Notes: generated from the sequence alone by a model not told the origin. A stretch of DNA of 64,000 nucleotides from Bacteroidota bacterium (GCA_947448795.1 CANFOZ010000001.1:52662-116661), one strand, 5' to 3'. Shown: positions 9,917-29,251, counted from the first letter of the stretch. Numbers and translations are program-made.

Positions 9917-10744
9917 TCAATGCTGAAGTTGAACATCGGAAATGTTAAACTGAGCGTCGTATAAAACTTGTAGCGCATCGCTTGTAATGGCGGAGTCGCC
10001 TCTGAATGGTCTATCTAAATCATAACAAATGAACATAGACATCGCAAACATAACGGCAATGATAAGCTTCATTGTAAATTGAATTTTCAAGTTTTCCATT
10101 TTATAGAAAAAGCTGGAGATGATCGTTAAGAAGCTAAATAAAAAGAGCACATACCAAGTGGACGCTGGTAAATCTTTCTTCGTGTCGTGCAAGCGCATAC
10201 GTCGGAGGTCGGTCAGCTCCCGATACAAGGGGAAGTAGATCTCGTAAAAATAGCGCTCGTCATGCGGCATGTCATACATGGTGTGCACGTGTTCGCGAAG
10301 TCCCATAAAGGCCTGCAGCGTTTTATCCGACGAGTTCCCTTTTTTCATCGCTGGCCATTCATCGTGAATAACAGAGTAGGTGTACTCTTTGATTGATTTA
10401 CGCATGTTCGCCTTGTAGGGTTCTTGCATGTGGTGCGTTTGGCTGTACATGGTGGCTAGTATGTCGGCCTCTCTGCCCACGTTGGTATCCACGGTTTGCC
10501 AAGTGGTCCAAAGGCTTACCCAGACAAAGGTTACTATTAACGAGAAAATCACACCAGCTAGGTTAAAGGTGGTGAGCACCATCTCATTTGAATCTTCACT
10601 TAATTTCCCCTTTGTAAGCTTCAAGAATATAGCAAATCCGATAAAGGTGAAGGAAACATATAGTATAATCCAAGTGGACAGGTTAAGCCAGATGTCAGAT
10701 TTGTAAAAGAATTCCATGTTTTGAATTTGTATGCAGCAAAGCAA
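9917..10744 (-). CDS. Hypothetical integral membrane protein (two TM pairs flanking a ~150-aa soluble region; recollection-level resemblance to DUF4239)
   Basis: 275-aa ORF. It has strongly hydrophobic helices at both ends, and a His-rich soluble middle (HHMQEPY, HVHTMYDMPHDERY). The true start is probably MEFFYKSD..., 9 codons into the ORF. Confidence 0.5.
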   Translation of the reverse strand: MLCCIQIQNMEFFYKSDIWLNLSTWIILYVSFTFIGFAIFLKLTKGKLSEDSNEMVLTTFNLAGVIFSLIVTFVWVSLWTTWQTVDTNVGREADILATMYSQTHHMQEPYKANMRKSIKEYTYSVIHDEWPAMKKGNSSDKTLQAFMGLREHVHTMYDMPHDERYFYEIYFPLYRELTDLRRMRLHDTKKDLPASTWYVLFLFSFLTIISSFFYKMENLKIQFTMKLIIAVMFAMSMFICYDLDRPFRGDSAITSDALQVLYDAQFNISDVQLQH

Positions 10745-11024
10745 ATTTACAATTTGCTGAGGTGAGCTAAGTTCGTTTTTATCAAAAAATTAGTAATTTG
10801 AATAGTATCGCTTATCCAACCTTGATTTTTTACATAGCTTTACAAGTGAACTATATAATGATTTTCAACTTTATGTCATTCGCTAATTTTCGCAAGGAAG
10901 CATTCGCAAATAAATCACATGCCTTTTTAACGTGTTTGTTTTTTGCACTCCTTGCTATTGCTATCGTTTCATCAGTTTTAATAGTAAGTATGTTCAAGGC
11001 ATTTCTTCGCAGGTGAATCATGAT

Positions 11025-12014
11025 ATGGAGGCCTTTATGAACGAAAAGGCGATCGATCCAGGCAAAACGGCTGACGACTTTCATGCTCGTCCTGCACATT
11101 GCCCGAAGGCATTGGTCGGTATTTATATCGAACGGGTTTTAGATGCTGATATCAAGCAATCTTTTTGGGATTATGAATGTACGATTTGGTTTCGTTGGAA
11201 GCCAAGCGAAGTCGATTTTTTGGGCAGGAATAAATTTATGCTAGATGGCCAGATTCCATTCAAAATTATTGATGGATCGATAGCAAGTACCGAGGTTACG
11301 GAGCATTTTAAAATACCTCAAGACAGCTCAGAATATATACAATATTTTGTTCGTGCTAAGAGTTCGAAATTTTTTGATGTTTGCCTCTATCCTGTTGACA
11401 AGCACGATTTAATATTGCAGGTTGAACACAAGTGGCTTGAACGCAACCAGCTGCTTTTGGTGCCCGATACGACAGAATCGAAAATTAGCTCTAGGGTGTC
11501 AGTATGTGGCTATATCAAATCCCCTGAACCCATTATTATTGAGAAGCCCCATCGATATCGTTCATCTAAAGGAAACCCGAATTTTACAGATGGGCATCGC
11601 TTGGTTTTTTCACAAGCAAGGATGGCGATGCATATCAGCAGGGGAGGTGTCTCGAATGTCTTCAAGCTCTTTTTGGTGCTTTATATAGCGGTGGTTGTTG
11701 CCTTTGTGTCTTTTTTTGCATCCGACCCAAGCAGATACGCCGTTGGCGCCTTGTTCACCACGGCGGGTGCTAATTTTATATTAATGTCGAAGCTGCCAGC
11801 GCTACAAGTATATTCTTTTGCCGAGATCCTGTATGCCATGTGCCAAGTGGTTATTCTTTTAATGATCGTTTTTCTTGCCATATTACCGCGAATAACGACG
11901 GTAGATAATCGACCGGATTTCTTTGAAAAGAAGATGCATCTGGCAATCCATTCGAGCTTGCTTCTATTTACTATCGTCCTTAATATCCTACTTATTAAAG
12001 TCGCCTTGCAGTAA
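11025..12014 (+). CDS. Hypothetical membrane protein: ~230-aa soluble N-domain followed by four C-terminal TM helices (topology reminiscent of prokaryotic pentameric ligand-gated ion channels)
   Basis: Start chosen at the internal ATG (MEAFMNEKAID...) of the 10932..12014 ORF. The C-terminus has a TM1-TM2-TM3, short loop, TM4 layout. No signal peptide is evident. Confidence 0.45.
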   Translation: MEAFMNEKAIDPGKTADDFHARPAHCPKALVGIYIERVLDADIKQSFWDYECTIWFRWKPSEVDFLGRNKFMLDGQIPFKIIDGSIASTEVTEHFKIPQDSSEYIQYFVRAKSSKFFDVCLYPVDKHDLILQVEHKWLERNQLLLVPDTTESKISSRVSVCGYIKSPEPIIIEKPHRYRSSKGNPNFTDGHRLVFSQARMAMHISRGGVSNVFKLFLVLYIAVVVAFVSFFASDPSRYAVGALFTTAGANFILMSKLPALQVYSFAEILYAMCQVVILLMIVFLAILPRITTVDNRPDFFEKKMHLAIHSSLLLFTIVLNILLIKVALQ

Positions 12015-16513: not shown

Positions 16514-17548
16514 TTAACCACCTAACGTGGCCAGGAAGTTTTTGAACTGTTCAACCAATGTTGGATAGGTGCTTAAGCTGGTTAGATCGCACTTCTCGGT
16601 GACCTCCGTTCCAATGAACATCAACTTCTCATTGTTGAACTTGGTGTACATGAAAATATCTTTCTTGATGTTGAACTTCTCCTTTGTGTCAATCACCTCG
16701 GGGCGGGTGTCGATCACAAGCGGCGAGAGGTTCAGAAACTCTGTCGGCACCTTGGTGTCTTTCATGAGCAGCACCGAATGGCTGTCGGAAAACTGATCGT
16801 GAAGCAGTTCCGTGGCCTTGAAATCGGAATCGGAGCTGTTCAGCAGGTCCATCACGTGACTGAACTTGGCGCCTTGGTGCTTCATTTTCTGCACCTTGAT
16901 CTCGCGGATGGTGACGAGTTTGTATTTGATGATGAAGGCGATGGAGGCCAAGACCTGCGCGAGTTTGTCTTCGTATTCCACACAACGCTTCTGAATCTCC
17001 TCTTCGGTGAGGTTGATCTGGTAGTGTCCGATCTCGTTGCGTTCCGGCACCCAGAAGTCGAGGGTTTCGTAGAATTTCTTGTTCAACGCCTCTTTCATTT
17101 CGGGCATGAAAGGCTCGATGCTGAGCTTTTCGAAGAGGTTGCCTGAGGCGCGGATGAGCCAGGTGAAGTTGCCCAAGGAGAGCACCGTGATGCGCTGCTT
17201 GAACTGTCCGCTGAATTCCGATGGAATCTCGAAGTTCTTGTGGATGCGTTCCTCCCATAATTGAGCGAGCATAACGAAGCTGAGATATTGCATCGTTCGT
17301 TCAATGGTCTTGAAAAGCTGATCCAAACGGCCGCGATCGAGCTGTCGCATCGATCCGGAGAAGAGGCGGCGCATTTCTACTCCAATCGGCCAAGGCAGAT
17401 GTTTAATGATTAAATCGGCAAGTACACGCGTGTCAGGGCCATCGTCCGGATCGTCCTCGTCGCTTAGCAGGTATTTGGCCAAAGAAGGCTTGTGTTGAAC
17501 CATGGATTCGAACACTTTTTTAATCAATTCTTCGTTGACGTTGGCCAT
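16514..17548 (-). CDS. Hypothetical protein, likely co-transcribed partner of the upstream STAND NTPase-WD40 gene
   Basis: 344-aa ORF that starts 12 nt after the stop of the 1282-aa gene on the same strand. It is soluble, with an acidic patch SDEDDPDDGPD and no recognisable catalytic motif. Confidence 0.5.
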   Translation of the reverse strand: MANVNEELIKKVFESMVQHKPSLAKYLLSDEDDPDDGPDTRVLADLIIKHLPWPIGVEMRRLFSGSMRQLDRGRLDQLFKTIERTMQYLSFVMLAQLWEERIHKNFEIPSEFSGQFKQRITVLSLGNFTWLIRASGNLFEKLSIEPFMPEMKEALNKKFYETLDFWVPERNEIGHYQINLTEEEIQKRCVEYEDKLAQVLASIAFIIKYKLVTIREIKVQKMKHQGAKFSHVMDLLNSSDSDFKATELLHDQFSDSHSVLLMKDTKVPTEFLNLSPLVIDTRPEVIDTKEKFNIKKDIFMYTKFNNEKLMFIGTEVTEKCDLTSLSTYPTLVEQFKNFLATLGG

Positions 17549-17560
17549 CTTTAGGAGTGC

Positions 17561-20500
17561 TTATTTTAATCCGTATTCTTCAATCTCACGAGGGGTGAAG
17601 GACCTTGGTTCGCCGAATACTTTTTTTGTTCGAACTAGCTTTACGATTTCATCTGGTTGAACAGGCAATTGATGAATGGTTTTGCCATCGCTCAAGTAGA
17701 GTGTTTTTCCATCTTTTGAAAAATCGCCCTTGTAGCCATTTACCGAAAGCAATTCGTGTCCACCAATGGTGCGAAGACGAACGAAGTCCTCTTCTGTAGT
17801 GCAAACTAACTTGCCATCAGAGGAAATGGTAATTTTTTTAGGGCTTTTGATTTCCGGCGCATTCGTGTTACTCCAGTTAGCATCCGTCTTAAGCCATGGA
17901 CCGTAAGGAATGTTTGTCCACAGATTGTAAGAAGATTTGAAATAGGAGATGCCTCCGGAACTTGTGGTACTTTTTTCATAAGGCTCAAATACGACCGTTG
18001 ACTCGTTGTCACTGAAGTATGCATCTGCAATTGCGAAGGGAATCTCGTAGGCATCATTCAAGGTATTGATCAATTCGCCTTTTAGATTCCATATGCCCAT
18101 AAGGCTATCGTCGGAGGCGGTGATAATGAATTTGCCATCCTTGGAGAAACGCGCTCTGTTAATCTTTTTGTGATGACCGCTCAGCAATGCATATGATTTA
18201 GTTTGCAAGGTGCTGCTATCATATCTCCACACCTGTGCAATGGAGTCTTGGGTTGTCACGAAGAAGGTGCTTGCCGGGGAGAATGCAATACCAGTTGGTT
18301 GTCCCTTGACACCTTCTAAAGTCAGGCGTTTAGGATGCAGTCCCTTTGCATTCAAAGCGTAAAGGGCGATGTGAGCGGAATCTTCGGGGTAACCCAATAA
18401 AAGATCATCGAATGACACGAAACTTGATCCACCTGTTTTATCGGACTGCAGGGTATGTGCTTTTTTAGTGATGGCTTTTCCGGTATGAACATCGAAGACA
18501 TGGATGTCAGCCTCTTGATTCGGCTCTAGCTCCTGTATGATGATCATTTTTCCGGTGCCTGAAAAATCAGCAATTTGCTCTGCATCTTTGTTTATTGATG
18601 TATAGCTGAAGAGCTCCTTGAAGTTGACATCTAGCACCTTTACCGTTCCGTTTTTCATGCAAATCGCATGCTGACCATCTGGCCCTAATTTATGTTCCAA
18701 TGCGTTTTGGATTGCACTTTGGTAGCTCGGTTTCCAAATACTGACGGTGTTCCCGTTCATGCTGCCCGTCACTACAAATTGATTATTTGCGGTGAAGGAC
18801 ACTTTCTCATCAGCGAAAGTTTCCGTCATTCTGCGGAACGTGGTATGCTTTCCTAGCGGTGTATAAAGCTCGACCGTGCGTTCGTTATCATCTACCGTCA
18901 GTGCGTACTTGGAGTCATTCGATAGCCTGACTAAATCGCCCTTGATGCGATGGCTTAGTTGACCATCCGCTCGGTTGTATATATCCGTGTATTCTCTACC
19001 ACTCATAACATAGATGCTTTCTCCATCGGGAGAGAAGGACATATTCGCTCCTTCGAAGTTGCCTTTGATCGTTAGCTGCAGCTTGCCGCCAATGGTAAAC
19101 AAACCAATGCAAGAGTCGTTTTTCGCCAGTAATTCTTGCTCATCCGGCGAGAGGCTTATTGCATCCGAGAAGCCTTTGATAATCTGTAACTTTTTCCCTT
19201 GTCGATTATACATAGAAACTTGTCGAAAATTAGTCTCGGTTTTTAGTTCGGTTTCCGACTCGCTGTAGGTTGTAAAAGCCATGCCGGTAAACAGCATGTT
19301 GCCATCCCTGCTGAATTCGATGCGATTCGACAGTTGATGCAGTTCGAAGCTATTAACCAAGCGACCACCGGCATCGTATTCGAGTATGCTTGCGTTGCCA
19401 AAACTGTACAGCCCCATCGCAAGCAGTATGTGATTGTCCGCAGTTAATTTTGCTCTGGCTCCAGCATGCTCTTTGTTTTCTAAAGCCAAAACTGTTTTCA
19501 GCTCTTTGTTAAGTATGAAAACCGAATCCAGCTGCACTAGCATGTACATTTCTTTTAGCGCCTGAATCTGGAATTCGCTCGCCACCTTACGACTGTTGAT
19601 TTTGTTGCCATTGAAATTCCAAACACTGATTTCCATGTTTGAGTTATTGGCACTTGCAGGCCCAAGCACGTCGATAAGCACAAAGGTGTTAGGCGTGGCA
19701 AGCAGGGGAGGTTTCGATCCTGCAGCAGGAAAAGTATAGAGATGATTCTCGTGATTTAGCTTAATGGTTTTTGTCAGGGATACTCCTGTTTCTTTGAAGC
19801 TATAAAAACGCAAGGTGCTGTCGTCGCTGGAAGTAACCATGTGCTTACCTGATTCATCAATCAAGTAATCCTTTCCCGGCACGTTGAGATAAAACGGTCC
19901 ATTCCGATACGCGTTGATCAAGGCCTTCTGAATCAACTCTCCCTTGGGATTCAATTCATAGGCTTTTTCAGCAAGAAGGTATGCGAGTGTCGGATCCTCA
20001 TCAACCTTAATCAGCGACATGGCCGCTAATTCATTCGCGCGTGTCAGCTGATTCTGTTGATAGAAATAAAAAGCAACGGCACCTACCAACAGCATCAAAC
20101 TCAATAAGGAAACAAGCGAAACACGGCGCTTCAGACGACGGTTCGTTTGGATGATTGTCCTGCTTTTTTGCACAAAGCCCTGTAAGGATTCATCCAAAAA
20201 AAGTTGCTTCTCGTAGGTGGCGAGGTAATTCAGATCGTCCTGATTAAGCAAGATGCCGCGCACCTGAAATTCTTGATGGCGATTGGTGATCAGCTGACGA
20301 ACCTGCAGCAGTTCTTTCTCTGTCAGCGTTATTTTCTCATAAATCTTAGCTGCGAGCGAATCGTGGCGTAACTCGTATTTATCCTTTTCGTCTTTGTCGC
20401 GCAGAATCCGCAGATTGACAAATAGATTGACAAAGTGCTCGATCTCCTTGTCTGTAAGGTCTTGGCCCAAAGTACGTGTGAAATCGCCCGCTTCCTGCAA

Positions 20501-21409
20501 AGACAATTGGCGTTTCGTTCCTTCTGTTGAAACAAAACTTTTCAGCACACTGACCGCCTTGTTCGCTTCGGGAATGGTTGCCAGCTGCTCTTCCAGGAAA
20601 TCGGCGAGCACATCCGAGATGTTACCCAGCTCTTGTAACATGCTGTTGCGAAAGCCGATTTCGTTCGGATTTCTTTTGACAGCCAATTTGTAGAGCTTGT
20701 CGAGGAAAACCTGCAAGTAGGTCAATTCAACCTCGGAGCGCTCGGGTGATATCTTGTCGAGCAGACTTTGTGCAAAGCCCTCTTCCACAGGGATGTTGAA
20801 CACCCTGCAAGGTCCGAGGATGGCTTCCTGGGCTGCCGTGCGCGTCATCTTCTCGATGCGGATTCTGTTTTGGAAAAACTCCGGAATCTGTTCCTCAAAA
20901 CGGCTCAGATTTTCAAGGTACTCGCCGCGTATGATGAAGATGAACTTACAAGAGAGGCCGGCTTGGATGACCGCTTTGAGTTCGTCGATGAAGTGATCGA
21001 TCTCTTCCTTGTTGCCGAAGATGAACAGCTCCTCGAACTGATCGAAAAGCAGGTAGATGGGTTTGAAGTGATCGAGATATAACGACTCGATACACTTTTT
21101 TAATCTTGCATTTTCTTTGATCGGGGTGATGGCTTGCTTGCGTATCGTATCAGTCAATGAACGCGTCATGTTGTCGCCGCGTCTCACCAGGATGGGCATC
21201 CAGTCGCTCTCGTTGAATTTGTTGGCCAAGCCGCATTGAATGAGACTCGTCTTGCCTGTGCCTGAGGCACCGTAAACCAGCAGCATGTTGCTCTCGAATA
21301 CGCGTGCATAGAGTTCTTCAATTTCTTTTTCACGACCGAAGAAGATCTCGCGGTCGGCACGCGTGAAGCTATCCAGAAACTTGAACGGAGATGACGTGGT
21401 TGCTTGCAT
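17561..21409 (-). CDS. Membrane-anchored STAND-type P-loop NTPase with large C-terminal WD40 beta-propeller region
   Basis: 1282 aa. The N-terminus has FFGREKEIEELY followed by Walker A VYGASGTGKTSL and Walker B IYLLFDQFEELF. A helical region follows, then a single TM helix RRVSLVSLLSLMLLVGAVAFYFY near aa ~440-465. After that come ~800 aa of beta-propeller repeats with a canonical WD40 unit (LSGHHKKINRARFSKDGKFIITASDDSLMGIWNL). Confidence 0.7.
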   Translation of the reverse strand: MQATTSSPFKFLDSFTRADREIFFGREKEIEELYARVFESNMLLVYGASGTGKTSLIQCGLANKFNESDWMPILVRRGDNMTRSLTDTIRKQAITPIKENARLKKCIESLYLDHFKPIYLLFDQFEELFIFGNKEEIDHFIDELKAVIQAGLSCKFIFIIRGEYLENLSRFEEQIPEFFQNRIRIEKMTRTAAQEAILGPCRVFNIPVEEGFAQSLLDKISPERSEVELTYLQVFLDKLYKLAVKRNPNEIGFRNSMLQELGNISDVLADFLEEQLATIPEANKAVSVLKSFVSTEGTKRQLSLQEAGDFTRTLGQDLTDKEIEHFVNLFVNLRILRDKDEKDKYELRHDSLAAKIYEKITLTEKELLQVRQLITNRHQEFQVRGILLNQDDLNYLATYEKQLFLDESLQGFVQKSRTIIQTNRRLKRRVSLVSLLSLMLLVGAVAFYFYQQNQLTRANELAAMSLIKVDEDPTLAYLLAEKAYELNPKGELIQKALINAYRNGPFYLNVPGKDYLIDESGKHMVTSSDDSTLRFYSFKETGVSLTKTIKLNHENHLYTFPAAGSKPPLLATPNTFVLIDVLGPASANNSNMEISVWNFNGNKINSRKVASEFQIQALKEMYMLVQLDSVFILNKELKTVLALENKEHAGARAKLTADNHILLAMGLYSFGNASILEYDAGGRLVNSFELHQLSNRIEFSRDGNMLFTGMAFTTYSESETELKTETNFRQVSMYNRQGKKLQIIKGFSDAISLSPDEQELLAKNDSCIGLFTIGGKLQLTIKGNFEGANMSFSPDGESIYVMSGREYTDIYNRADGQLSHRIKGDLVRLSNDSKYALTVDDNERTVELYTPLGKHTTFRRMTETFADEKVSFTANNQFVVTGSMNGNTVSIWKPSYQSAIQNALEHKLGPDGQHAICMKNGTVKVLDVNFKELFSYTSINKDAEQIADFSGTGKMIIIQELEPNQEADIHVFDVHTGKAITKKAHTLQSDKTGGSSFVSFDDLLLGYPEDSAHIALYALNAKGLHPKRLTLEGVKGQPTGIAFSPASTFFVTTQDSIAQVWRYDSSTLQTKSYALLSGHHKKINRARFSKDGKFIITASDDSLMGIWNLKGELINTLNDAYEIPFAIADAYFSDNESTVVFEPYEKSTTSSGGISYFKSSYNLWTNIPYGPWLKTDANWSNTNAPEIKSPKKITISSDGKLVCTTEEDFVRLRTIGGHELLSVNGYKGDFSKDGKTLYLSDGKTIHQLPVQPDEIVKLVRTKKVFGEPRSFTPREIEEYGLK

Positions 21410-21465: not shown

Positions 21466-22347
21466 ATGGAGCCTCAAATTCAAAAAACCAGCTCGCATTG
21501 GTTTCGCGTGATGCGGTATTTCTTTTTCGCCACTTCGGTCGTTTTGTACCTTTCTAGCTTTGTTTTTTTTCAGGACCTCGCGATGTTGTGCATGTTCCTC
21601 TGCATGCTGGGCGCTGTGGTCGTGGAGAGCATGGTGGGCAAGAAACACAAGCGCATGATTCTGCTGAGTCTCGGTTTTCTTATTTCCGATGTTGTCATTA
21701 CTTCGCTGCTAGTCAATCATCCGGATTACGATATGTGGAGTCGTTTCCGCATGTTACTCGGCGTCTTTATCTTTTCACTGCTTTCTCCGCTCATCACCGA
21801 GGTAAAACATTACCCGAAGATTTTTCTAGGGGCCTTGGGTTTGTTAATAATCGGCGTGTTTTTTAAAGTTTCTCATTTTCCAGGCGCTTCCGTGATTTTG
21901 GTTGTGAGTGTTTTTTTTATGACGATTGTTTTCATCGTTCAATGGTTCTATTCCTTTCGTTTCCTGAAAACGAATTTGCTGCTGATGTTCGCAAGTTTGT
22001 TGTGTAATTTCGTGGTCATCATTTTTTATCTCGGATGGCTCTTCCGCACGATGCATTGGCAAGGGGCTGCTATTTTCACCTTGAACAACTACTTCGCCCC
22101 CTTGTTCGGTCTTGTATCGGCCTCCTTAATCATCGGTGTGCAGATGAACGATTTCACGAGTTGGCTCGAGAGTCAACGCAAATACCTGGTGAACAACATC
22201 CTCATCCCTTGGTTCGTCGTTTTTCTCATCGGTGGCTGGATGCTGCTCTTTGAGCAATCCTTCAATAACCTTATGATCGGTGCGAGCAACGTGGCGCACA
22301 ATCCTTTCGGCATGCAGGATTATTCCATCGACGATTTACCTAAGTAA
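21466..22347 (+). CDS. Polytopic integral membrane protein (unknown function)
   Basis: 293 aa with at least 7 hydrophobic helices. Its stop is 6 nt before the TPR-PP2C gene, so it is probably co-transcribed. Confidence 0.55.
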   Translation: MEPQIQKTSSHWFRVMRYFFFATSVVLYLSSFVFFQDLAMLCMFLCMLGAVVVESMVGKKHKRMILLSLGFLISDVVITSLLVNHPDYDMWSRFRMLLGVFIFSLLSPLITEVKHYPKIFLGALGLLIIGVFFKVSHFPGASVILVVSVFFMTIVFIVQWFYSFRFLKTNLLLMFASLLCNFVVIIFYLGWLFRTMHWQGAAIFTLNNYFAPLFGLVSASLIIGVQMNDFTSWLESQRKYLVNNILIPWFVVFLIGGWMLLFEQSFNNLMIGASNVAHNPFGMQDYSIDDLPK

Positions 22348-22352
22348 GGCAG

Positions 22353-24350
22353 ATGTCTTCAGTCGAAACGTTTCGAGCTCGCGTCCGCGAATTATGGAAT
22401 CTGCGCTACAGCGATTCTCGTCAACTCGGTGTGCTGGGTGCTGAACTAATTTCTTCAGGATCGGTACATAAACAAGAGCACCCTTCGACAAGCTCAGGGA
22501 CCGGCCCTTCGACAGGGGTTCGACGGGCTCACCCTGTAAGCTCAGGGACCGGCCCTTCGACAGGGGTTCGACGGGCTCACCCTGTAAGCTCAGGGAGCGA
22601 GCGAGAAAACACGCGGGCCTATGGCAAATTGTTTGTCGCCATCTCGAATTTCTTCAATTCGAAGGATGAGCATGTGCTCGAGTATCTCCTCGATAGCTAT
22701 GCATCTTTTGCAAAATTGAACGATGCCGATGGCTTGGGAAAAGCCTGTGCCTTTTTGGCAAGTGTATACGACAACTATGGTGAATACGAAACGGCATTGC
22801 GTTATGCACAAGAAGGTCTTCGTCATGCTGAAACCACGAAGGATGAGGAGCTCGAAGCCGATGTACATGCCAATGCCGGCTTGATCTACACACGCATTTC
22901 AGATCTCGAGCATGCAGAGCAATCGTTTCTGAAAAGCCTGACTATCCGCGAACGCATGGGCAACCACCGCGCCGTCGCATCTTCTTTAAATCTCCTCGGA
23001 AGAACCTATTCACTCGCTAATAAATTTGAACAAGCGCTTGACTACTACAATCGAAGCTTGACGCTGCGCATCGAACAGCAAGACAAGGGTGGAATTCCCT
23101 GGACTTACATCGGCATGGCGAGTGTGTTCGAGCGAATGCAGGATTTTGCATCGGCCTTGGATTACTATGGGAAAAGTGCCGCACAAAGCAAGGAGAACAA
23201 AGATGTACGGGCCAATTTGTATTGCTTGTTGGGCTCCGGCAAGATCCGATTGAATTACAACGAGCCCGAGCTCGCAAAGCTTGAGTTGCAGGAAGGACTG
23301 CAGATTGCTGAGTCGATCAAGAGCAAGCCGCTCATGTACGATTTTCACCAAGCGCTCTCCAAGGCGTATGAGTTGCTTGTCGATTATCAACAGTCTCTAA
23401 ATCACCTGCGCCTTTTTCAGGAGTTGAAAGAGGAGGTGCTAAGCACCGAGACAACCAACAAGATGAAGCATCAGCAGATGAGCTTCGATATCGAGCGATC
23501 GCGCCAAGAGGCCGAGATCTTCAGGTTGCGCAACGTGGAACTTAAAGAGGCGTATGACAAGATTGAAGAGAAAAACAAAGCGATCACCGATAGCATCAAC
23601 TACGCTTTACGCATTCAACAAGCGATTTTGCCATCCAAGGCAGTGATGGCGCAAGGCTTGCCTGAGCATTTTGTGTTGTATCTCCCAAAAGACATTGTAT
23701 CCGGTGATTTCTATTGGTTCGGAGAGCAAGAAGGCTTCAGTATTGTAGCGGCTGTCGACTGCACCGGACACGGTGTTCCCGGCGCTTTCATGAGCATGGT
23801 AGGCAGTAGTTTGCTCAATCAGATCGTGCTCGAAAAAAACATACTCGCGCCTGATGCTATCTTGTCTGCGTTGCATCTCGGTGTTACGCATGCATTGCAA
23901 CAACACGGCACTGCCACTGCTTTTGGCGAAAAAACCCGCGATGGCATGGACATCGCCTTGTGCGTGCTGCAAAAAAGTGCGAACGGTTATCGTCTAGCCT
24001 ATGCAGGTGCCAATCGGCCTTTGTATCACATTCGCCAAAGCCTCTTGAACGAGACAAAGGCCACCAAGCTATCCATCGGTGGGGCAGATGAGGGTGAGGC
24101 ACGCGCATATACAGCACATAACATACAGCTCGAAACAGGAGATGCGTTCTACATCTTCAGTGATGGATATGCGGATCAGTTCAGCGCCTCCGACCAGAAA
24201 ATGATGACACGCCGATTCAAAGAACTGCTGCTCGAAGTGCAGGGACATTCCATGGTTGAACAGGAGCAGCGCCTCCGCACATTCTTCTTGGAATGGCGTG
24301 GAGAGGCAGAGCAGACCGATGATGTGTTGGTAATCGGCGTGCGCGTATAA
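22353..24350 (+). CDS. TPR-repeat / coiled-coil protein with C-terminal PP2C-type (SpoIIE/RsbU-like) serine phosphatase domain
   Basis: 665 aa. TPR-like helical repeats span aa ~100-340, then a coiled coil (EEVLSTETTNKMKHQQMSFDIERSRQEAEIFRLRNVELKEAYDKIEEK). SpoIIE motifs follow (SGDFYWF, VDCTGHGVPGAFMS, YIFSDGYADQF, DDVLVIGVRV). The N-terminal region contains a 16-aa exact duplication. Confidence 0.75.
   Translation: MSSVETFRARVRELWNLRYSDSRQLGVLGAELISSGSVHKQEHPSTSSGTGPSTGVRRAHPVSSGTGPSTGVRRAHPVSSGSERENTRAYGKLFVAISNFFNSKDEHVLEYLLDSYASFAKLNDADGLGKACAFLASVYDNYGEYETALRYAQEGLRHAETTKDEELEADVHANAGLIYTRISDLEHAEQSFLKSLTIRERMGNHRAVASSLNLLGRTYSLANKFEQALDYYNRSLTLRIEQQDKGGIPWTYIGMASVFERMQDFASALDYYGKSAAQSKENKDVRANLYCLLGSGKIRLNYNEPELAKLELQEGLQIAESIKSKPLMYDFHQALSKAYELLVDYQQSLNHLRLFQELKEEVLSTETTNKMKHQQMSFDIERSRQEAEIFRLRNVELKEAYDKIEEKNKAITDSINYALRIQQAILPSKAVMAQGLPEHFVLYLPKDIVSGDFYWFGEQEGFSIVAAVDCTGHGVPGAFMSMVGSSLLNQIVLEKNILAPDAILSALHLGVTHALQQHGTATAFGEKTRDGMDIALCVLQKSANGYRLAYAGANRPLYHIRQSLLNETKATKLSIGGADEGEARAYTAHNIQLETGDAFYIFSDGYADQFSASDQKMMTRRFKELLLEVQGHSMVEQEQRLRTFFLEWRGEAEQTDDVLVIGVRV
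22491..22586 (+). repeat. Perfect 2 x 48-bp in-frame tandem duplication inside the PP2C gene
   Basis: AGCTCAGGGACCGGCCCTTCGACAGGGGTTCGACGGGCTCACCCTGTA occurs twice back-to-back and is GC-rich. Partial 10-11-nt copies flank it on both sides. It encodes SGTGPSTGVRRAHPVS twice. Confidence 0.85.
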
Positions 24351-24353
24351 AAA

Positions 24354-27300
24354 CTACTTGATTTGTTTTTTGCGTTTCATGCCAAGCAGTCGCCCAAACT
24401 GTATTTCCAGCCCGGTCAGCAACCTCTTGAAAACATCGAAATACAGGGCGAAGCCCAACAAAATGGTGCTTATCCAAATCACCACAAGGTTGGCCTCAAA
24501 GGTGTTTAGATAGCTTCCCAGCAAATATTTTCGGGGCGCTAAAAAGTGCGCTCTAAATCCCGATTCAGCTACCCCATCGCGGAAGATGGGATCAATCGTG
24601 GTGACCAAACGTTCGTTCTCGATTTGATACGTGGGTGCATCAAAGGACGGATTGCGAGCCATGTCCTCGAGCTTGCCGTTGTGGTGCTTTTTCTTGAGCT
24701 CGTTCATGGCATCCGTGCCTCCGGGCTGCTTGTCCACTTCGACGAAGAAACGGTCACGTGCTTCAATTGCTTGGTTGTACTCATCGCCGCCTTGGCCTTT
24801 TACTGCCTCCAAATAAATTCTGAGGGCATCCCAAGTGGCTTTGTCTGAATGCGCTAAAGAAGGCAGGGCTGCAACATTGTTTTGTGATTGCTTGGCTTTC
24901 AGCTCATTGCATAGCACCTCCCAATTGGAATTAACGTTCGGCCCACTATGCTCCACTTCGTCAAGCAGGTTGAGCAAGGTCATGCACCAGCTTTTTTTCA
25001 GGCTAGCCAAACTTACCGCTCTATCCAACGTATACAAGGGTTGCTCGTAATCATTTCGGGTAAATTGATTCACTGCCAGGGCCTCGAAAGCCCAACGCGA
25101 AGTCATCAGTTCGCCAGGCAAGGGAACAACGGCTCTGCTAGAGATGATTGGGTTCAATTCATCAAACTTCACAATCACGCCACTGAGAAGCAGTTGCGGG
25201 ATGAGAAGAAAAGGAATTAGGATGTAAATAGTGACGGCCGAGTTAAAGGAGGCCGAGATGTTCAAGCCCAGCATGTTGGCGAAGCAGGAGCTGGTGAATA
25301 GCACGAGCCAATAGGCCGTATGCATATGTTGGATACCGAGCAGCGTGTTGCCGATCCAAACGAAAATCAACATCTGAAAGGCACTCAGGCCGAACAGCAG
25401 CACTATTTTAGAAAACAAATAGCTGCCTTTACTCAAGTTCAGAAAAGACTCTCGACGCAGGATTTTTCGGTCGCGAAAGATTTCCTCCGCACTAACGGTA
25501 AGGCCAATAAAAAGTGACACCACCACGCACATGAACATGTAAGCTGGAATGTTTCGATTGTCGCCCAATGTATACGCTTGTCCTTCGAGCGAGAATCGAC
25601 ACAGGAACGCGAGTATAAAGGCCAGCAAAGGCGGCTCCAGTATGTTGATGAGCAGGTATTGTGTGTTCGCCAACTTGGAAAAGAAATCTCTTTGCAGAAA
25701 AATTGTAAACTGTTTCCACAAACCCGGCTTATGGAAGTTGATTACCGGTTTTGTCTTTTCCACGGCTTCGCTCTTGCCATTAGCTAGCAGGCGCTGGTAG
25801 CGCTCGTTCCATTCTTTCGGTAATACTTTTCTTTCGCCGCTCGGGTTACCGTTCTCATCCAAAATGCGAGCTTCCAGAATCGAGAAAACTTGTTCCGGAT
25901 TGACATTGCCACACGTTAAACATTCACTTTCTTCCGCATCTACGTATGCAGCGGCGCGTTTGAAGTAAATGACCGATTCCACCGGATCGCCAAGATAGAC
26001 GGGGTAACCGCCAACGTCGAGGATCAGCAGCTTGTCGAACATCTTGAAAATCTCGGAGGAGGGTTGATGGATGACAACAAACACCAGCTTGCCACGCAGG
26101 GAGAGTTCTTTCAGCAAATCCATGATGTTTTCGGAGTCGCGCGAAGAAAGTCCGGATGTAGGCTCGTCCAAGAAAAGCACCGAGGGTTCACGGATCAATT
26201 CCAAGGCGATGTTGAGTCGTTTGCGTTGTCCGCCGGAGATGGTCTTCTCGAGCGGGTTGCCCACCTTCAAGTCGCGGGCTTCGTATAAGCCGATGTCGTT
26301 TAATAGCTGAAGGACTTTGTCAGCGATTTCCTTCTCCGTCAACTGATTGAAACAGAGCCGAGAGTTGAAATAAAGATTTTCGAAGACGGTGAGTTCTTCA
26401 ATAAGTAGGTCGTCTTGCGGCACAAAGCCAATCAGACCTTCAAGCTGTGCTTTTTCTTTGTGTAAATCGATACCGTTGATCAGCACTTTTCCCGCTGTCG
26501 GCGGGTTGTTGCCGTTGAGAATGTTAAGCAATGTCGATTTGCCAGCGCCGCTGCCACCCATTATACCCATGAGGTGTCCTGAGCGTTCGGTGAAACGAAG
26601 CGTCTGCAAACCAAGTTTGCCACTCTTGAATCGGTACTGGATGTCTTTCACCTCGAAACTGACAGCCTCATCAGCGCGGTGACTCATGAAGCAGCGCGCT
26701 ACATCACTGTAGAATATCGGTTGGATAGTATTGCCTCTCACCGAGGATCCGGGCGCGAAGACGGTGACTTTGTTTTTAGCAAGTCTTTGGCCGTTGATAG
26801 TGAGCCCCGCATCGCCCATAAATCGAATGAGAAACAGCGCTGCGCTGCTGATGCGCAAAACGAAAACGGGATGTGGAAGGGATTCGGCAATGAGGCGTTT
26901 ACCCGCAAGATCAGTGGCTGCTTTATGACTCGTGATGCTGAGCAGGTTCGCATTGGCCTTCAATGCCGGATCCGTGTTCGGATCGGCAAAGTCAAGCATC
27001 TCTTGAAATTGGCCTTCGCTGATATTGAAGGAGGAAGCGACCGTGTTGACGAACTCAAGCTCCTGCTCATTCATCAGCTCTTGCGAATGCAGAAAATCGA
27101 GAAGATAAAGGAGTACGAATACCTTCTGCCGAGGACTTAACTCTTCGTTTAATTGATTGCAGATGACGATGACTTTAACCGAGCTGACAGCTGTCTTCTT
27201 GCGTCTTTGTGTGTCGGTCGTTCCAAACTCCAACTCATTGAAAAAGCTGTCGTAAACTTGCAGGTAGTTGTCTACCTGGTCTGCGTTCAGATATTTTTGC

Positions 27301-27401
27301 AAGAAGTCGGCAACCACTAAACGCCGGGTGTCCGGCTGCTCTGCGCCTTTCGCGATGATCGCGAAAAGTTGCATAAGGGCACGAAGGATCTTCTCGCTCA
27401 T
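24354..27401 (-). CDS. ABC transporter, fused N-terminal regulatory (FHA-like) region + ATPase + ABC-2-type permease
   Basis: 1015 aa. Walker A GIMGGSGAGKSTLLNILNG, ABC signature LSGGQRKRLNIALEL, Walker B VLFLDEPTSGLS. The C-terminus has 6 TM helices. Upstream of the NBD is an FHA-like segment (LTINGQRLAKNKVTVFAPGSSVRGNTIQ). Confidence 0.8.
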   Translation of the reverse strand: MSEKILRALMQLFAIIAKGAEQPDTRRLVVADFLQKYLNADQVDNYLQVYDSFFNELEFGTTDTQRRKKTAVSSVKVIVICNQLNEELSPRQKVFVLLYLLDFLHSQELMNEQELEFVNTVASSFNISEGQFQEMLDFADPNTDPALKANANLLSITSHKAATDLAGKRLIAESLPHPVFVLRISSAALFLIRFMGDAGLTINGQRLAKNKVTVFAPGSSVRGNTIQPIFYSDVARCFMSHRADEAVSFEVKDIQYRFKSGKLGLQTLRFTERSGHLMGIMGGSGAGKSTLLNILNGNNPPTAGKVLINGIDLHKEKAQLEGLIGFVPQDDLLIEELTVFENLYFNSRLCFNQLTEKEIADKVLQLLNDIGLYEARDLKVGNPLEKTISGGQRKRLNIALELIREPSVLFLDEPTSGLSSRDSENIMDLLKELSLRGKLVFVVIHQPSSEIFKMFDKLLILDVGGYPVYLGDPVESVIYFKRAAAYVDAEESECLTCGNVNPEQVFSILEARILDENGNPSGERKVLPKEWNERYQRLLANGKSEAVEKTKPVINFHKPGLWKQFTIFLQRDFFSKLANTQYLLINILEPPLLAFILAFLCRFSLEGQAYTLGDNRNIPAYMFMCVVVSLFIGLTVSAEEIFRDRKILRRESFLNLSKGSYLFSKIVLLFGLSAFQMLIFVWIGNTLLGIQHMHTAYWLVLFTSSCFANMLGLNISASFNSAVTIYILIPFLLIPQLLLSGVIVKFDELNPIISSRAVVPLPGELMTSRWAFEALAVNQFTRNDYEQPLYTLDRAVSLASLKKSWCMTLLNLLDEVEHSGPNVNSNWEVLCNELKAKQSQNNVAALPSLAHSDKATWDALRIYLEAVKGQGGDEYNQAIEARDRFFVEVDKQPGGTDAMNELKKKHHNGKLEDMARNPSFDAPTYQIENERLVTTIDPIFRDGVAESGFRAHFLAPRKYLLGSYLNTFEANLVVIWISTILLGFALYFDVFKRLLTGLEIQFGRLLGMKRKKQIK

Positions 27402-27424
27402 CGTATATCCAAGAGGTCGAAACC

Positions 27425-28273
27425 CTAGTTCGTGATTTTTCCACGCACGGCTGTGACCTTTTCCGTCAATGAAGCAAGTGTTGCATCATCAATGGATGCA
27501 GAAGAAGGGATGGCCTGATAAAGTGAGTTGAGCGCGTTCATCTCTGTGATGATCGGCATGAACTCCTTATCTTTTTCATAGTCCTTCAGAACGGAAACAA
27601 TTTTGCCTAAATGCAGCTTTTGCATGAAGATCTGTTCTTTGATTTTTTTCAAATCTTCACCATTCTCCATGCCTTTAACGCTATTCAGTGTAAGGTATTG
27701 GCTTTCTACCCATCCACCCACAAGCATGTGTGTGGCCGTTTGAAGACGCTGATTGTTGCGCAAGTATTGATCCACTTGGGTGTAAAATTCATCTACCACT
27801 TTCATTACCGAATCCTTATTCTCTGCATAGTTCTTGATGCGCGAAGCAGCTACTTTGTTAAAGCCTTCGGTTGCATCCAGCGAGCCGGCTAGGTTTTTGG
27901 TGGTGTTATAATAAGTTTGGATGTTGCCAAACTGGTCGTTTGCCGCCAGATAGCCAAGATCGATGGCGTAAACACCGAAGTTTAGACCCCGCTTGAAAGA
28001 GGTAGTGTAACGTGACTCGTTGGCGGTTCCGTTTGTAAGTCCCTTGTCGAAGCGCGCATGCGATTTGCCGAGTACGTTGATGATTTCCAAAGGACTTGGA
28101 ATATCAGCTAATACCATGGAGAATTTGAATTCTTTCGTTTCGTCGATGGCCTCAACAGCAGCGGTGTCTTTCGCGGTTTCAGTGGTTGCAGCCGCCGGCT
28201 CTTGGTTTGCCGGAGGATTGCTGCAGGCGATCACAGTTAATAGCAGGGCTGGAGCAAGAATGCGTGCGTTCAT
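27425..28273 (-). CDS. Hypothetical lipoprotein
   Basis: 282 aa. Signal plus lipobox (LLLTVIACSN). It lies between the DUF1987-like gene and the ABC transporter on the same strand, with 18- and 23-nt gaps. Confidence 0.5.
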   Translation of the reverse strand: MNARILAPALLLTVIACSNPPANQEPAAATTETAKDTAAVEAIDETKEFKFSMVLADIPSPLEIINVLGKSHARFDKGLTNGTANESRYTTSFKRGLNFGVYAIDLGYLAANDQFGNIQTYYNTTKNLAGSLDATEGFNKVAASRIKNYAENKDSVMKVVDEFYTQVDQYLRNNQRLQTATHMLVGGWVESQYLTLNSVKGMENGEDLKKIKEQIFMQKLHLGKIVSVLKDYEKDKEFMPIITEMNALNSLYQAIPSSASIDDATLASLTEKVTAVRGKITN

Positions 28274-28291
28274 GGTGTTTTGGTTAATGGT

Positions 28292-28696
28292 TTATTTGGA
28301 TGTTTCTTGTGTTTTAAAGGGCATTTTCAAAATAGATTTGTAATCTTCCCCGGCTTCCTGCATGTCATCGTCTTCGGCTTGGTATTCCCAAATTACGTCA
28401 ACAGCGGATAATCGGGAAACATGCAGCGCTTGCAGTCGTTTGAAAAGATCTGCCAGTATTTTTGCCGAGCTGGTATTGAAATAGTCCAACTGAATAGTCA
28501 CAGAAGTGGCCGACTTGGGCTTCGCGCTGTATTCTTCCAGCCATGCAAACACGGGTTTGTAGAATTCGATGGTGTTCTCTGGAATGGAACGGCCACGAAT
28601 TTCTAAATTACCAGTGTCCGGATTCAAATTAACTGTTGGACTTTTTGCGGCTCCTTCAATTAGCAATGGGTGCATTTGGGCAAATATTTGTTGCAA
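28292..28696 (-). CDS. DUF1987 / SiaC-like small regulatory (phospho-acceptor) protein
   Basis: 134 aa. Motifs NLEIRGRSIPENTIEFYKPVFAWLEEY and LDYFNTSSAKIL match my recollection of the SiaC/DUF1987 family (Thr in ...NTSS...). It has an acidic C-terminal tail. Confidence 0.55.
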   Translation of the reverse strand: MQQIFAQMHPLLIEGAAKSPTVNLNPDTGNLEIRGRSIPENTIEFYKPVFAWLEEYSAKPKSATSVTIQLDYFNTSSAKILADLFKRLQALHVSRLSAVDVIWEYQAEDDDMQEAGEDYKSILKMPFKTQETSK

Positions 28697-28732: not shown

Positions 28733-29251
28733 TCAATTGACTCCGGAAAGCGCCTTATGCGCCTTTCTCTTCCTGCGACTGTGATGTTGAAAAGTATTCG
28801 AAAGAATACTGATGTTCCCATCTACCTCAAGTATCGCCAGATTTACTTCTTTGATCGAGTTCACGCCGTGCTCGCGAATAGCCGCCTCCAGTTCCTCAAT
28901 TGATATTTTTTCTTGCTCTAAATTTTTAACGATGAGTTGCCCTTGGTGAATCAACATCACTGGCTCGCCTTGTATAAACCGACTTGCTTTTTTGCTACGA
29001 AAGAGTACTTCTTTCAATACCGCATTCAAAAGAAAAAGTGCGCCGGCCGCCACCAGTCCGCCTTGCAAGGACGTGTCGCTGCCAACCATTGCATTCTGTA
29101 CCGAGTTGCTGATGAGTAAAATAAAAACCAAATCAACCACCGAGAGTTGAGAGATTTCCTTTTTTCCGAATAAACGAATAGCAAGTACAATGAAGACATA
29201 CACAGCACATGTTTTGCCAATGATTGGCCAATAAGGACTTAGTAATTCCAT
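28733..29251 (-). CDS. DUF421/YetF-like membrane protein
   Basis: 172 aa. N-terminal TM helices are followed by a soluble C-domain (...IEELEAAIREHGVNSIKEVNLAILEVDGNISIL), characteristic of the YetF family. Confidence 0.5.
   Translation of the reverse strand: MELLSPYWPIIGKTCAVYVFIVLAIRLFGKKEISQLSVVDLVFILLISNSVQNAMVGSDTSLQGGLVAAGALFLLNAVLKEVLFRSKKASRFIQGEPVMLIHQGQLIVKNLEQEKISIEELEAAIREHGVNSIKEVNLAILEVDGNISILSNTFQHHSRRKRKAHKALSGVN

Follow-up and report, generated by a model that had tools for sequence, protein, structure and literature searches.

A putative SiaABC-type threonine-phosphorylation partner switch genetically linked to an ABC exporter in Bacteroidota

The phosphatase SiaA and the small phosphoprotein SiaC on which it acts are known from the control of biofilms in Pseudomonas. 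The SiaABCD system of Pseudomonas aeruginosa, made up of a PP2C (SiaA), a kinase (SiaB), a DUF1987 phosphoprotein (SiaC) and a diguanylate cyclase (SiaD), follows a logic in which the small STAS-like SiaC regulates a neighbouring protein; T68 is the phospho-site of SiaC, the N67/T68/S69 patch is its partner-binding surface, and the protein is structurally related to STAS (PMC8457831, PMC7647112). Phosphorylation also controls an exporter in Mycobacterium tuberculosis, where the ABC transporter Rv1747 adjoins Ser/Thr phospho-signalling genes and is regulated by the Ser/Thr kinase PknF (PMC3138270); its two FHA domains are described in the literature as canonical phosphothreonine binders, and its operon as including a Hanks-type kinase. 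The Bacteroidota locus described here resembles both systems in part, and it shares with the classical partner switches (RsbU/RsbV/RsbW, SpoIIE/SpoIIAA/SpoIIAB and HsbR/HsbA) the combination of a SpoIIE-family PP2C phosphatase and a small STAS-related phosphoprotein.

The locus lies within a window of 64 kb, the whole stretch of DNA analysed, and comprises five ORFs, all of which a sequence-only reading had listed and placed correctly. On the plus strand, a 293-aa polytopic membrane protein (21466..22347) is followed after 5 nt, and not 6 as that reading had it, by a 665-aa cytoplasmic protein (22353..24350) composed of TPR, coiled-coil and SiaA-type PP2C (SpoIIE family) Ser/Thr phosphatase regions. 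On the minus strand, an operon runs from the gene of a SiaC-family (DUF1987) regulatory phosphoprotein (28292..28675) through that of a 282-aa lipoprotein with a signal peptide and a lipobox, VIAC, at Cys17 (27425..28273) to that of a 1015-aa ABC transporter (24354-27401), with the gaps of 18 and 23 nt originally reported; the phosphatase gene is convergent to the exporter gene. The transporter begins with a TerB-like, all-helical cytoplasmic domain (aa 1-140; 26982..27401) and an FHA-fold beta domain (aa 150-240; 26682..26954), while Pfam, NCBIfam and hydropathy assign to the remainder (24354..26654) an NBD, an ABC-2/ABCG-type membrane domain and a C-terminal extension. Specifically, ABC_tran is matched at aa 265-416 (E=1.8e-32) in an NBD of approximately aa 250-470, and ABC2_membrane at aa 564-779 (E=3.3e-19), downstream of the NBD in the same polypeptide; the White/ABCG-like subfamily model TIGR00955 scores 260 bits, under its cut-off, and the extension of about 230 aa ends with one more hydrophobic helix (aa 972-990). 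The lipoprotein matches no family in Pfam or NCBIfam, and its mature domain is modelled as all-helical (AlphaFold, pLDDT 79), with generic helical bundles as the only fold matches.

The first product of the operon matches PF09345 over profile positions 1-119 of 120 (E=4.6e-39; 133.2 bits vs a cut-off of 24.5), which leaves the proposed DUF1987/SiaC assignment standing, and it also matches the P. aeruginosa SiaC structures 6kko/6k4f (E=5e-13), with YLNTSS and YFNTSS aligned without gaps. The YFNTSS segment, singled out earlier as phospho-acceptor-like, is intact and carries the same N-T68-S patch as P. aeruginosa SiaC; a codon check placed the predicted phospho-acceptor, T68, at 28472-28474, and the motif Y-F-N-T68-S-S is kept across 32 related sequences, the sole exception being one divergent paralogue with Ser. 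The score against the NCBIfam SiaC equivalog (NF038265) is 84.8 bits, under the cut-off of 150. The protein belongs to DUF1987 and is not a Pfam STAS protein, in which it differs from the phosphoproteins of the classical partner switches. Its length has to be corrected from 134 to 127 aa, the true start being the ATG at 28675, in agreement with a 100%-identical database protein (P0001) and with every homologue. The TTG at 28696, taken earlier as the start, falls within a TATTTTTG promoter-like box.

The phosphatase is, as had been stated, a SpoIIE-type PP2C with TPRs: it matches PF07228 (E=1.3e-16) together with TPR families, including TPR_12, and its catalytic domain spans approximately aa 420-665. 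The NCBIfam SiaA model (NF038263) gives 179.3 bits, under the equivalog cut-off of 700, in a match restricted to the coiled-coil and PP2C part (aa 376-665). Among solved structures, the only PP2C match at E<=1e-3 is P. aeruginosa SiaA-PP2C (6k4e; E=5.1e-33), and the alignment keeps all the catalytic motifs, GDFY, VDCxGHGVPGA, DG and DD, with the catalytic residues taken as listed in PMC7647112. By sequence, then, the catalytic domain is specifically of the SiaA type, closest to SiaA-PP2C.

The two phosphatases part in their N-terminal regions. SiaA has a transmembrane/HAMP N-terminus, whereas the Bacteroidota enzyme, in which hydropathy gave no hydrophobic segment, has a cytoplasmic TPR N-terminus and is accompanied by a separate polytopic membrane protein. 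This membrane protein, formerly described as 7TM, has about 8-9 hydrophobic segments by hydropathy and contains two GldL_N-like hairpin motifs, FKVSHFPGA (aa 133) and FRTMHWQGA (aa 193), with a weak GldL_N match (E=2e-4) under the cut-off. Its family is rare (108 representatives at E<=1e-3 among 1.84 billion), and in L010, a related locus, a SiaA-type PP2C has similar hairpins fused to it; the membrane protein probably serves the phosphatase encoded downstream as a membrane partner or as a sensor. The same pair, a membrane protein followed by a TPR-PP2C, is encoded in GCA_023251555.1, with 43% and 51% identity, respectively, next to unrelated genes. Two observations count against a coupling of the phosphatase with the exporter, namely that their genes are convergent and not co-transcribed in the window, and that no exporter accompanies the pair in GCA_023251555.1; the phosphatase of the window may serve another SiaC.

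The statement that the window holds no SiaB-like kinase was confirmed by tblastn, by the SiaB profile at maximum sensitivity and by Pfam scans, the latter covering ORFs of at least 110 aa neither nested in nor overlapping longer ones, with the L001 annotation used for 29-40 kb. The same scans and annotation revealed no SiaD-type GGDEF domain, and no Hanks-type Pkinase domain was found by the Pfam scans in the window. Since no kinase lies within the 64 kb, phosphorylation of the SiaC paralogue of the window is an assumption. In these respects the locus departs from SiaABCD: it has no kinase gene, and the recurrent neighbour is a TerB/FHA-fold ABC exporter with its lipoprotein and not a SiaD/GGDEF enzyme. 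It departs also from the classical partner switches, as its output is not a sigma factor and no anti-sigma-type kinase is present in the window.

The arrangement is not a one-off. Orthologous exporter loci were compared in the best 80 of at least 563 by exporter N-terminal profile score, mostly MAGs labelled as Bacteroidales and Flavobacteriales families, a sample neither random nor corrected for kinship. Of the 66 informative loci, 50 encode a lipoprotein homologue immediately before the exporter, which makes the lipoprotein a conserved partner of the exporter. SiaC and/or SiaB adjoin the exporter in approximately 24 of the 80 loci, in two arrangements. In one of these, SiaC is co-directional at the head of the operon (six loci and the window); in the other, a SiaB-SiaC pair is convergent, 7-185 bp past the exporter stop codon (14/63 loci). 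Around 70% of the sampled exporter loci contain no Sia gene within 10 kb. When neighbour families are ranked by locus count, with ORFs nested antisense within the exporter gene left out, the exporter (81) is followed by the lipoprotein (56), a 142-aa secreted protein (51), SiaC (23), a 162-aa secreted protein (16), SiaB (15) and the best housekeeping neighbour (13); beyond the core operon genes, the exporter is most often accompanied by SiaC and SiaB.

The kinase of these relatives is of the SiaB family (NF038262; 171 bits vs a cut-off of 85) and adjoins SiaC in 15 loci, a pairing shared with SiaABCD. The operon-head SiaCs form a separate clade in a quick neighbour-joining tree without support values, and a canonical-type and an operon-head-type SiaC adjoin each other in L010, suggesting that the operon-head SiaC is a paralogue from which the adjacent kinase has been lost. 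SiaA-type PP2Cs follow the exporter in L008-L011, the four closest loci with an operon-head SiaC; of the two further such loci, one, L050, shows no PP2C over 6.9 kb, and the other, L079, is truncated. Exporter, SiaC, SiaB and PP2C are contiguous in L085, sister to the clade of the window. Sampling from the SiaC side returned the exact layout of the window, SiaC-lipoprotein-exporter with a convergent SpoIIE phosphatase, in P0073, and SiaC-lipoprotein-exporter in P0042. The Sia-linked exporters share only 51-60% identity with one another and occupy dispersed positions in the exporter tree (quick neighbour-joining, without support values); Sia genes have stayed linked to this exporter family in divergent Bacteroidota. 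The co-localisation proposed for PP2C, SiaC-like protein and exporter therefore recurs, while the membrane protein and TPR-PP2C proved separable from them; since an orthologous pair stands beside unrelated genes elsewhere, the locus is best described as two adjoining sub-modules and not as a fixed five-gene unit.

On balance, it appears somewhat probable that the locus encodes a Bacteroidota SiaABC threonine-phosphorylation partner switch coupled to an envelope exporter and not to a diguanylate cyclase. Many related genomes show the pairing of SiaA/SiaC with the exporter, so that the switch probably governs export and not a signalling enzyme of the Pseudomonas type, and we infer that it gates the exporter directly. 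In such a mechanism, a SiaB-family kinase whose gene lies elsewhere in the genome would phosphorylate SiaC at T68, and the membrane-protein/TPR-PP2C pair would strip the phosphate upon a membrane or envelope cue. One phospho-state of SiaC, most likely the unphosphorylated one by analogy with SiaC-SiaD, would then dock on the cytoplasmic TerB/FHA-fold module of the exporter, or act otherwise on the exporter pathway; docking would switch the export of an envelope component, which the periplasmic lipoprotein would receive.

The linkage that suggests a contact between SiaC and the exporter would fit indirect co-regulation as well. Switch and exporter could share an envelope or polysaccharide response and be kept close for co-regulation, with the direct target of SiaC being another protein, for example a surface-polysaccharide synthesis enzyme or regulator, or SiaB as a sequestering partner. 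ABC-2 membrane domains (PF01061) typically belong to exporters of glycans and lipids, and some SiaB-SiaC pairs adjoin sugar-nucleotide and polysaccharide genes with no exporter nearby, as near an NTP_transferase gene in L004 and near those for epimerases, CpsB, Wzz and a glycosyltransferase in L096; moreover, the Sia pair of the second arrangement is convergent to the exporter and not co-transcribed with it. This explanation is credible but unlikely, as SiaC comes first in the lipoprotein-exporter operon in the clade of the window, with the 18- and 23-nt gaps expected of subunits or direct regulators, and the exporter has two conserved cytoplasmic domains of a protein-interaction type with no other obvious ligand. 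Furthermore, the paper on the SiaC-SiaD structure puts forward a role of DUF1987 proteins as modulators of adjacent proteins (PMC8457831).

Direct gating could also work in the opposite sense, with the FHA domain of the exporter acting as a true phosphothreonine reader of pT68-SiaC and phospho-SiaC gating transport as in Rv1747, and it is on the N-terminus of the exporter that this depends. The TerB-like domain rests on an AlphaFold model (pLDDT 85), a weak Pfam TerB match (E=0.07) and PF05099 precomputed on homologues. In the segment described as FHA-like, the fold was borne out by fold matching, which returned an FHA beta-sandwich, but a sequence-profile match and the canonical phospho-Thr-binding signature were not found: Pfam FHA (PF00498) matches neither residues 1-254 nor residues 155-245, even at E<=10, and an 81-sequence profile picks up none of the solved FHA chains. 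The GR...SxxH signature is missing, the window protein having neither Arg nor His at those positions, and the conserved residues of the family are others (S186, Y190, G196, N203-G204-Q205, G218-S219-S220-x-R222 and P228-x-Y-Y-S-D233). Position 180 is Phe in the window exporter and Arg in 65% of its relatives, six residues ahead of Ser186, whereas the Arg-to-Ser spacing of FHA domains is usually about 15 residues; after Ser186, Tyr190 is conserved in place of His.

Among the best fold matches is the FHA domain of EssC, an interaction module not known to bind phosphothreonine. The N-terminal FHA domains of EssC belong to an FtsK/SpoIIIE-type protein of type VII secretion and not to the ABC class, and a profile search detected no sequence relationship of the exporter domain to EssC or to other non-canonical FHA-fold modules of secretion ATPases and scaffolds. 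On the other side, the FHA-fold domain is kept in every family member, and the nearly invariant Ser186 and the invariant Asn203 could, by sequence, be equivalents of FHA binding residues and sit in the binding loops. There is also the precedent of Rv1747 as an FHA-bearing ABC exporter under Ser/Thr phosphorylation control (PMC3138270), and the window exporter is likewise an ABCG/ABC-2-like half-transporter with an N-terminal cytoplasmic FHA-fold regulatory domain beside Ser/Thr phospho-signalling genes. It differs from Rv1747 in that its single FHA-fold domain is divergent, lacks the canonical signature and is joined by a TerB-like domain, and in that its signalling partners are of the SiaA/B/C and not the Hanks type. 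In the only studied system, T68 phosphorylation abolishes the binding of SiaC to its target (PMC8457831), and a phospho-SiaC reader in the exporter, as the sequence-only reading had envisaged, is unsupported and decidedly doubtful.

A chance adjacency of the membrane-protein/TPR-PP2C pair with a functionally unrelated exporter operon bearing a stray SiaC paralogue, which would fit the orthologous pair found without exporter, the convergent phosphatase and the lack of Sia genes in most exporter loci, is very improbable given that SiaC and SiaB are the most frequent exporter neighbours beyond its own operon genes, that the linkage persists at 51-60% exporter identity in two gene orders, that the exporter has SiaA-type PP2Cs with differing sensor domains at its side in L008-L011, L085, L043, L080 and L092, and that, assuming a genome of a few Mb with one to three SiaC genes, such proximity within a few kb would be expected in well under 1% of genomes vs approximately 26% observed.

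Lastly, the low-complexity N-terminal region of the phosphatase contains a perfect 48-bp tandem repeat of 2.2 copies (22490..22596, plus strand) that encodes GTGPSTGVRRAHPVSS; its copy number is polymorphic, as the phosphatase has 649 aa, 16 aa fewer, in other assemblies of this species.

A SiaA-type phosphatase, a SiaC-type protein with the acceptor threonine, and an exporter that has two interaction-type domains in the cytoplasm form a conserved neighbourhood, which in the window consists of five genes, all found as open reading frames where the sequence-only reading had placed them. On the plus strand, the gene for a polytopic membrane protein of 293 aa (21466-22347) is followed after 5 nt by that of a TPR-PP2C protein of 665 aa (22353-24350). 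The minus strand carries a SiaC-like gene (first read as 28292-28696), followed after an 18-nt gap by a gene coding for a 282-aa lipoprotein (27425-28273) and, 23 nt further, by that of a 1015-aa ABC transporter (24354-27401), the stop codon of which is separated by 3 nt from that of the phosphatase. The window is chromosomal and also codes for ribosomal proteins, SecY, RpoA, MutS, AlaRS, MreBC, and PBP2; one contig of the MAG GCA_947449325.1 has the same sequence, and an Rfam scan of the window gave zero matches.

The SiaC-like protein matches PF09345 (SiaC family, formerly DUF1987; E=4.6e-39) and the solved P. aeruginosa SiaC structures (E=5e-13), in agreement with its initial assignment. 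Its true start is the ATG at 28675, which yields 127 aa, because a 100%-identical database protein and all homologues agree on it, while the TTG start first assigned falls inside a TATTTTTG box, spotted by eye just upstream of this ATG. Bacteroidota promoters have a consensus other than that of sigma-70, and this is the basis of the promoter readings made here; a scan for sigma-70 promoters and terminators was uninformative, since its counts were at or below the shuffled expectation. The acceptor threonine is T68 (127-aa numbering) in the motif Y-F-N-T-S-S, which had been singled out as a conserved phospho-acceptor-like segment and proved invariant across 32 related sequences, apart from one divergent paralogue with Ser. 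In Pseudomonas, SiaB phosphorylates the T68 position/patch of SiaC, SiaA removes the phosphate, and SiaD is bound there (PMC7647112, PMC8457831). Between mutS and SiaC, all on one strand, is a gene for a DUF421/YetF membrane protein (28733-29251, minus strand), with spacers of 41 nt to mutS upstream and 57 nt to the SiaC start. It was rejected as a part of the module, since no sampled locus outside the species of the window has it next to SiaC.

In the phosphatase, TPR repeats at aa ~110-360 and a coiled coil precede a PP2C domain of the SpoIIE family, and Pfam returned the same domains that had been called by inspection. Among all solved structures, its sole PP2C match is the P. aeruginosa SiaA-PP2C (6k4e, E=5.1e-33), with which the GDFY, DCxGHG, DG, and DD catalytic motifs are aligned, and the NCBIfam SiaA model covers the coiled-coil and PP2C part, far under the equivalog cut-off. 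The protein has no hydrophobic segment and is thus cytoplasmic. Its gene contains a perfect 48-bp tandem repeat in 2.2 copies (22490-22596), encoding GTGPSTGVRRAHPVSS; same-species assemblies have one copy fewer and a phosphatase of 649 vs 665 aa, hence the number of copies in this low-complexity N-terminus is polymorphic, and the reading frame is kept. In the 64-kb window, tblastn, the SiaB profile, and Pfam scans detected no kinase at all, in line with the sequence-only reading, which had seen no SiaB-like kinase there, and Pfam scans found no GGDEF protein. The kinase for the SiaC of the window is presumably encoded elsewhere.

The transporter is an ABC-2/ABCG-like half-transporter with a 250-residue cytoplasmic N-terminal extension. 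The FHA-like character ascribed to this extension is supported at the level of the fold only: at the level of sequence, Pfam FHA gave no match to it even at E<=10, and a family profile of 81 sequences compared with all solved chains retrieved no FHA sequence and just one chance match. The extension also has a TerB-like domain, overlooked in the initial reading. The residues conserved in the family are S186, Y190, G196, N203-G-Q, G218-S-S-x-R222, and P228-x-Y-Y-S-D; the canonical GR...SxxH set is not conserved in the family, and the window exporter has neither its Arg nor its His. Past the ABC-2 membrane domain, a C-terminal extension of ~230 aa (aa 785-1015; 24354-25049), with no Pfam match, ends in an extra hydrophobic helix (aa 972-990) and is conserved across the family. 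Besides its lipobox, the lipoprotein has an all-helical domain, the fold matches of which are generic helical bundles and nothing else. The exporter family counts at least 563 matching stretches in species-representative genomes, all from Bacteroidota, and as a combination of TerB-like domain, non-canonical FHA fold, ABC-2, and lipoprotein it may be previously uncharacterised; no paper linking it to SiaC/DUF1987 was found in the searched literature.

The comparative signal for the neighbourhood is strong. The exporter N-terminal profile was used to take 80 loci, the best-scoring 80 of at least 563 stretches and mostly from MAGs, which were annotated by matching six-frame ORFs to profiles built in this analysis; locus counts are raw, with related loci counted separately and kinship ignored, and trees are neighbour-joining without support values. 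Of the 66 informative loci, 50 have a homologue of the lipoprotein directly upstream of the exporter. A word-indexed protein search had retrieved 13 lipoprotein relatives, the distant ones not beside exporter or SiaC, and had suggested no linkage of the lipoprotein, a result overturned by the profile scan of genome contigs. Between lipoprotein and exporter, there is a 142-aa secreted protein in 51 of 81 loci and, in some loci, a secreted protein of 162 aa that matches LolA_2 weakly (examples of such intervening genes among L012-L087 are L014 9499-9921 and L013 2589-3077), both absent from the clade of the window. The next commonest real-gene neighbours of the exporter are SiaC (23 loci) and SiaB (15 loci; a DUF6272 protein that matches the 'SiaB family protein kinase' model NF038262 with 171 bits vs a cut-off of 85), the best housekeeping neighbour reaching 13. 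We infer that chance would bring SiaC next to the exporter in well under 1% of genomes, vs about a quarter observed, by an informal estimate that assumes a genome of a few Mb with one to three SiaC genes.

The co-localisation supposed from the window alone thus recurs, as Sia genes are found beside exporter relatives in two gene orders. In one order, present in 14 of the 63 informative loci, a SiaB-SiaC pair lies 7-185 bp beyond the exporter stop codon, in convergent orientation; these exporters share only 51-60% mutual identity, are scattered over the exporter tree, and come from records labelled Bacteroidales, Rikenellaceae, Vicingaceae, Cryomorphaceae, and others. In the other order, SiaC heads the lipoprotein-exporter operon and the kinase is absent nearby; the exporter tree groups its members (the window, L008, L009, L010, L011, L050, and L079) in one clade, and in the closest relatives the exporter is flanked by one to three SiaA-type PP2Cs. 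In L085, the sister of this clade, exporter, SiaC, SiaB, and PP2C are contiguous. Sampling from the side of SiaC, through database homologues picked by the length of their contigs alone, recovered the exact layout of the window with SiaC, lipoprotein, exporter, and convergent SpoIIE (P0073), and SiaC-lipoprotein-exporter (P0042). The PP2Cs flanking the exporter in L008-L011, L085, L043, L080, and L092 have a common SiaA-type catalytic domain (48-54% identity) and differing sensor N-termini. Moreover, the operon-head SiaCs form a clade of their own, apart from the SiaB-paired ones, and L010 carries both types side by side; therefore, the SiaC of the window looks like a paralogue recruited into the exporter operon. 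In one relative with the SiaC-lipoprotein-exporter operon (L097), the convergent downstream gene (10489-11991) codes for a 500-aa HATPase_c protein, not a PP2C, which by eye looks like a sensor histidine kinase.

The membrane protein and the TPR-PP2C are a conserved unit of their own. The former has ~8-9 hydrophobic segments and two GldL_N-like F[KR]xxH[FW]xGA hairpin motifs 60 residues apart, in its relatives such motifs number two or three, again 60 residues apart, and the family is rare (108 representatives among 1.84 billion). In L010 (10054-12120), two GldL-like hairpins, alignable to the separate membrane protein of the window (BLASTP E=1e-6), are fused to a SiaA-type PP2C, a Rosetta-stone arrangement hinting that the membrane protein may work with the phosphatase. 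An orthologous pair (43% and 51% identity) is present in GCA_023251555.1, where it comes after the same divergent STAND-WD40 gene as in the window and is followed by thiolase and NlpC/P60 genes, not by the exporter. In the window, this divergent block (16514-21409, minus strand) lies across a 56-nt spacer from the membrane-protein gene and codes for an nSTAND1 NTPase of 1282 aa that has WD40 beta-propellers and, upstream of it, for a 344-aa protein that matches no Pfam family. The block is kept in GCA_023251555.1/ERZ27297570 (336 aa and STAND, with 7TM and TPR-PP2C on the opposite strand), and a STAND-WD40 gene is near the PP2C in L009 as well. The block may possibly be functionally tied to the phosphatase pair; PADLOC and NCBIfam gave for the NTPase weak Avs4/IetA P-loop matches and nothing else.

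In the mechanism that we propose, a SiaB-family kinase encoded elsewhere would phosphorylate SiaC at T68, and the membrane-protein/TPR-PP2C pair would strip the phosphate upon some membrane or envelope cue. One phospho-form of SiaC would then target the exporter (docking on the TerB/FHA-fold module is the most plausible way) and would so control whether some envelope component is exported to the lipoprotein. [quoted passage not shown] Extended to the phylum, the proposal is that a major output of the Bacteroidota SiaB/SiaC switch is this TerB-like/non-canonical-FHA-fold/ABC-2 exporter with its dedicated lipoprotein, turned on and off by direct, T68-phosphorylation-dependent docking of SiaC on the TerB/FHA-fold module, a tentative reading that we regard as possible rather than probable. 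The main rival of the proposed mechanism is an indirect link, whereby the Sia switch and the exporter would belong to a shared envelope or polysaccharide regulon; other SiaB-SiaC pairs, away from any exporter, adjoin sugar-nucleotide or capsule-type genes. The alternative raised by the sequence-only reading, in which the FHA domain of the exporter would read pT68 of SiaC, is weakened by the absence of the canonical residues from the window exporter.

The locus would work like the SiaABC partner switch and differs from SiaABCD at the equivalog level, being below the cut-offs and devoid of a local SiaB and of SiaD. To our knowledge, c-di-GMP signalling is largely lacking in Bacteroidota, and we know of no earlier STAS-like partner switch with a transporter as target; direct docking of SiaC on the exporter, if true, would be the first. 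In the searched full-text literature, DUF1987 appears in Pseudomonas work only, and nothing ties it to ABC exporters or Bacteroidota; in Pseudomonas, SiaC activates a diguanylate cyclase, the sole setting studied (PMC8457831, PMC7647112), and the authors of the SiaC-SiaD work proposed that the widespread DUF1987 proteins regulate whatever adjoins them (PMC8457831). The window locus and its relatives offer a concrete candidate for a second target class of SiaC, namely an ABC exporter that brings along docking domains in the cytoplasm. The locus also resembles Rv1747/PknF, an FHA-fold-bearing ABC exporter beside Ser/Thr signalling genes (PMC3138270), from which it differs in having neither canonical FHA domains nor a Hanks kinase; the docking mechanism, if true, would add a mode of post-translational control of ABC exporters that differs from the Hanks-kinase/FHA control of Rv1747. 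The regulatory handle is, in addition, a good way into what the exporter family exports, and when.

Lastly, in other Bacteroidota loci, full SiaA-SiaB-SiaC operons or SiaB-SiaC pairs are located directly upstream of sugar-nucleotide and capsule-type genes, coding for epimerases, CpsB, Wzz, and a glycosyltransferase in L096 (1-12381) and for an NTP_transferase in L004 (9440-11543), which hints that the Sia switches of these loci are tied to surface polysaccharide.
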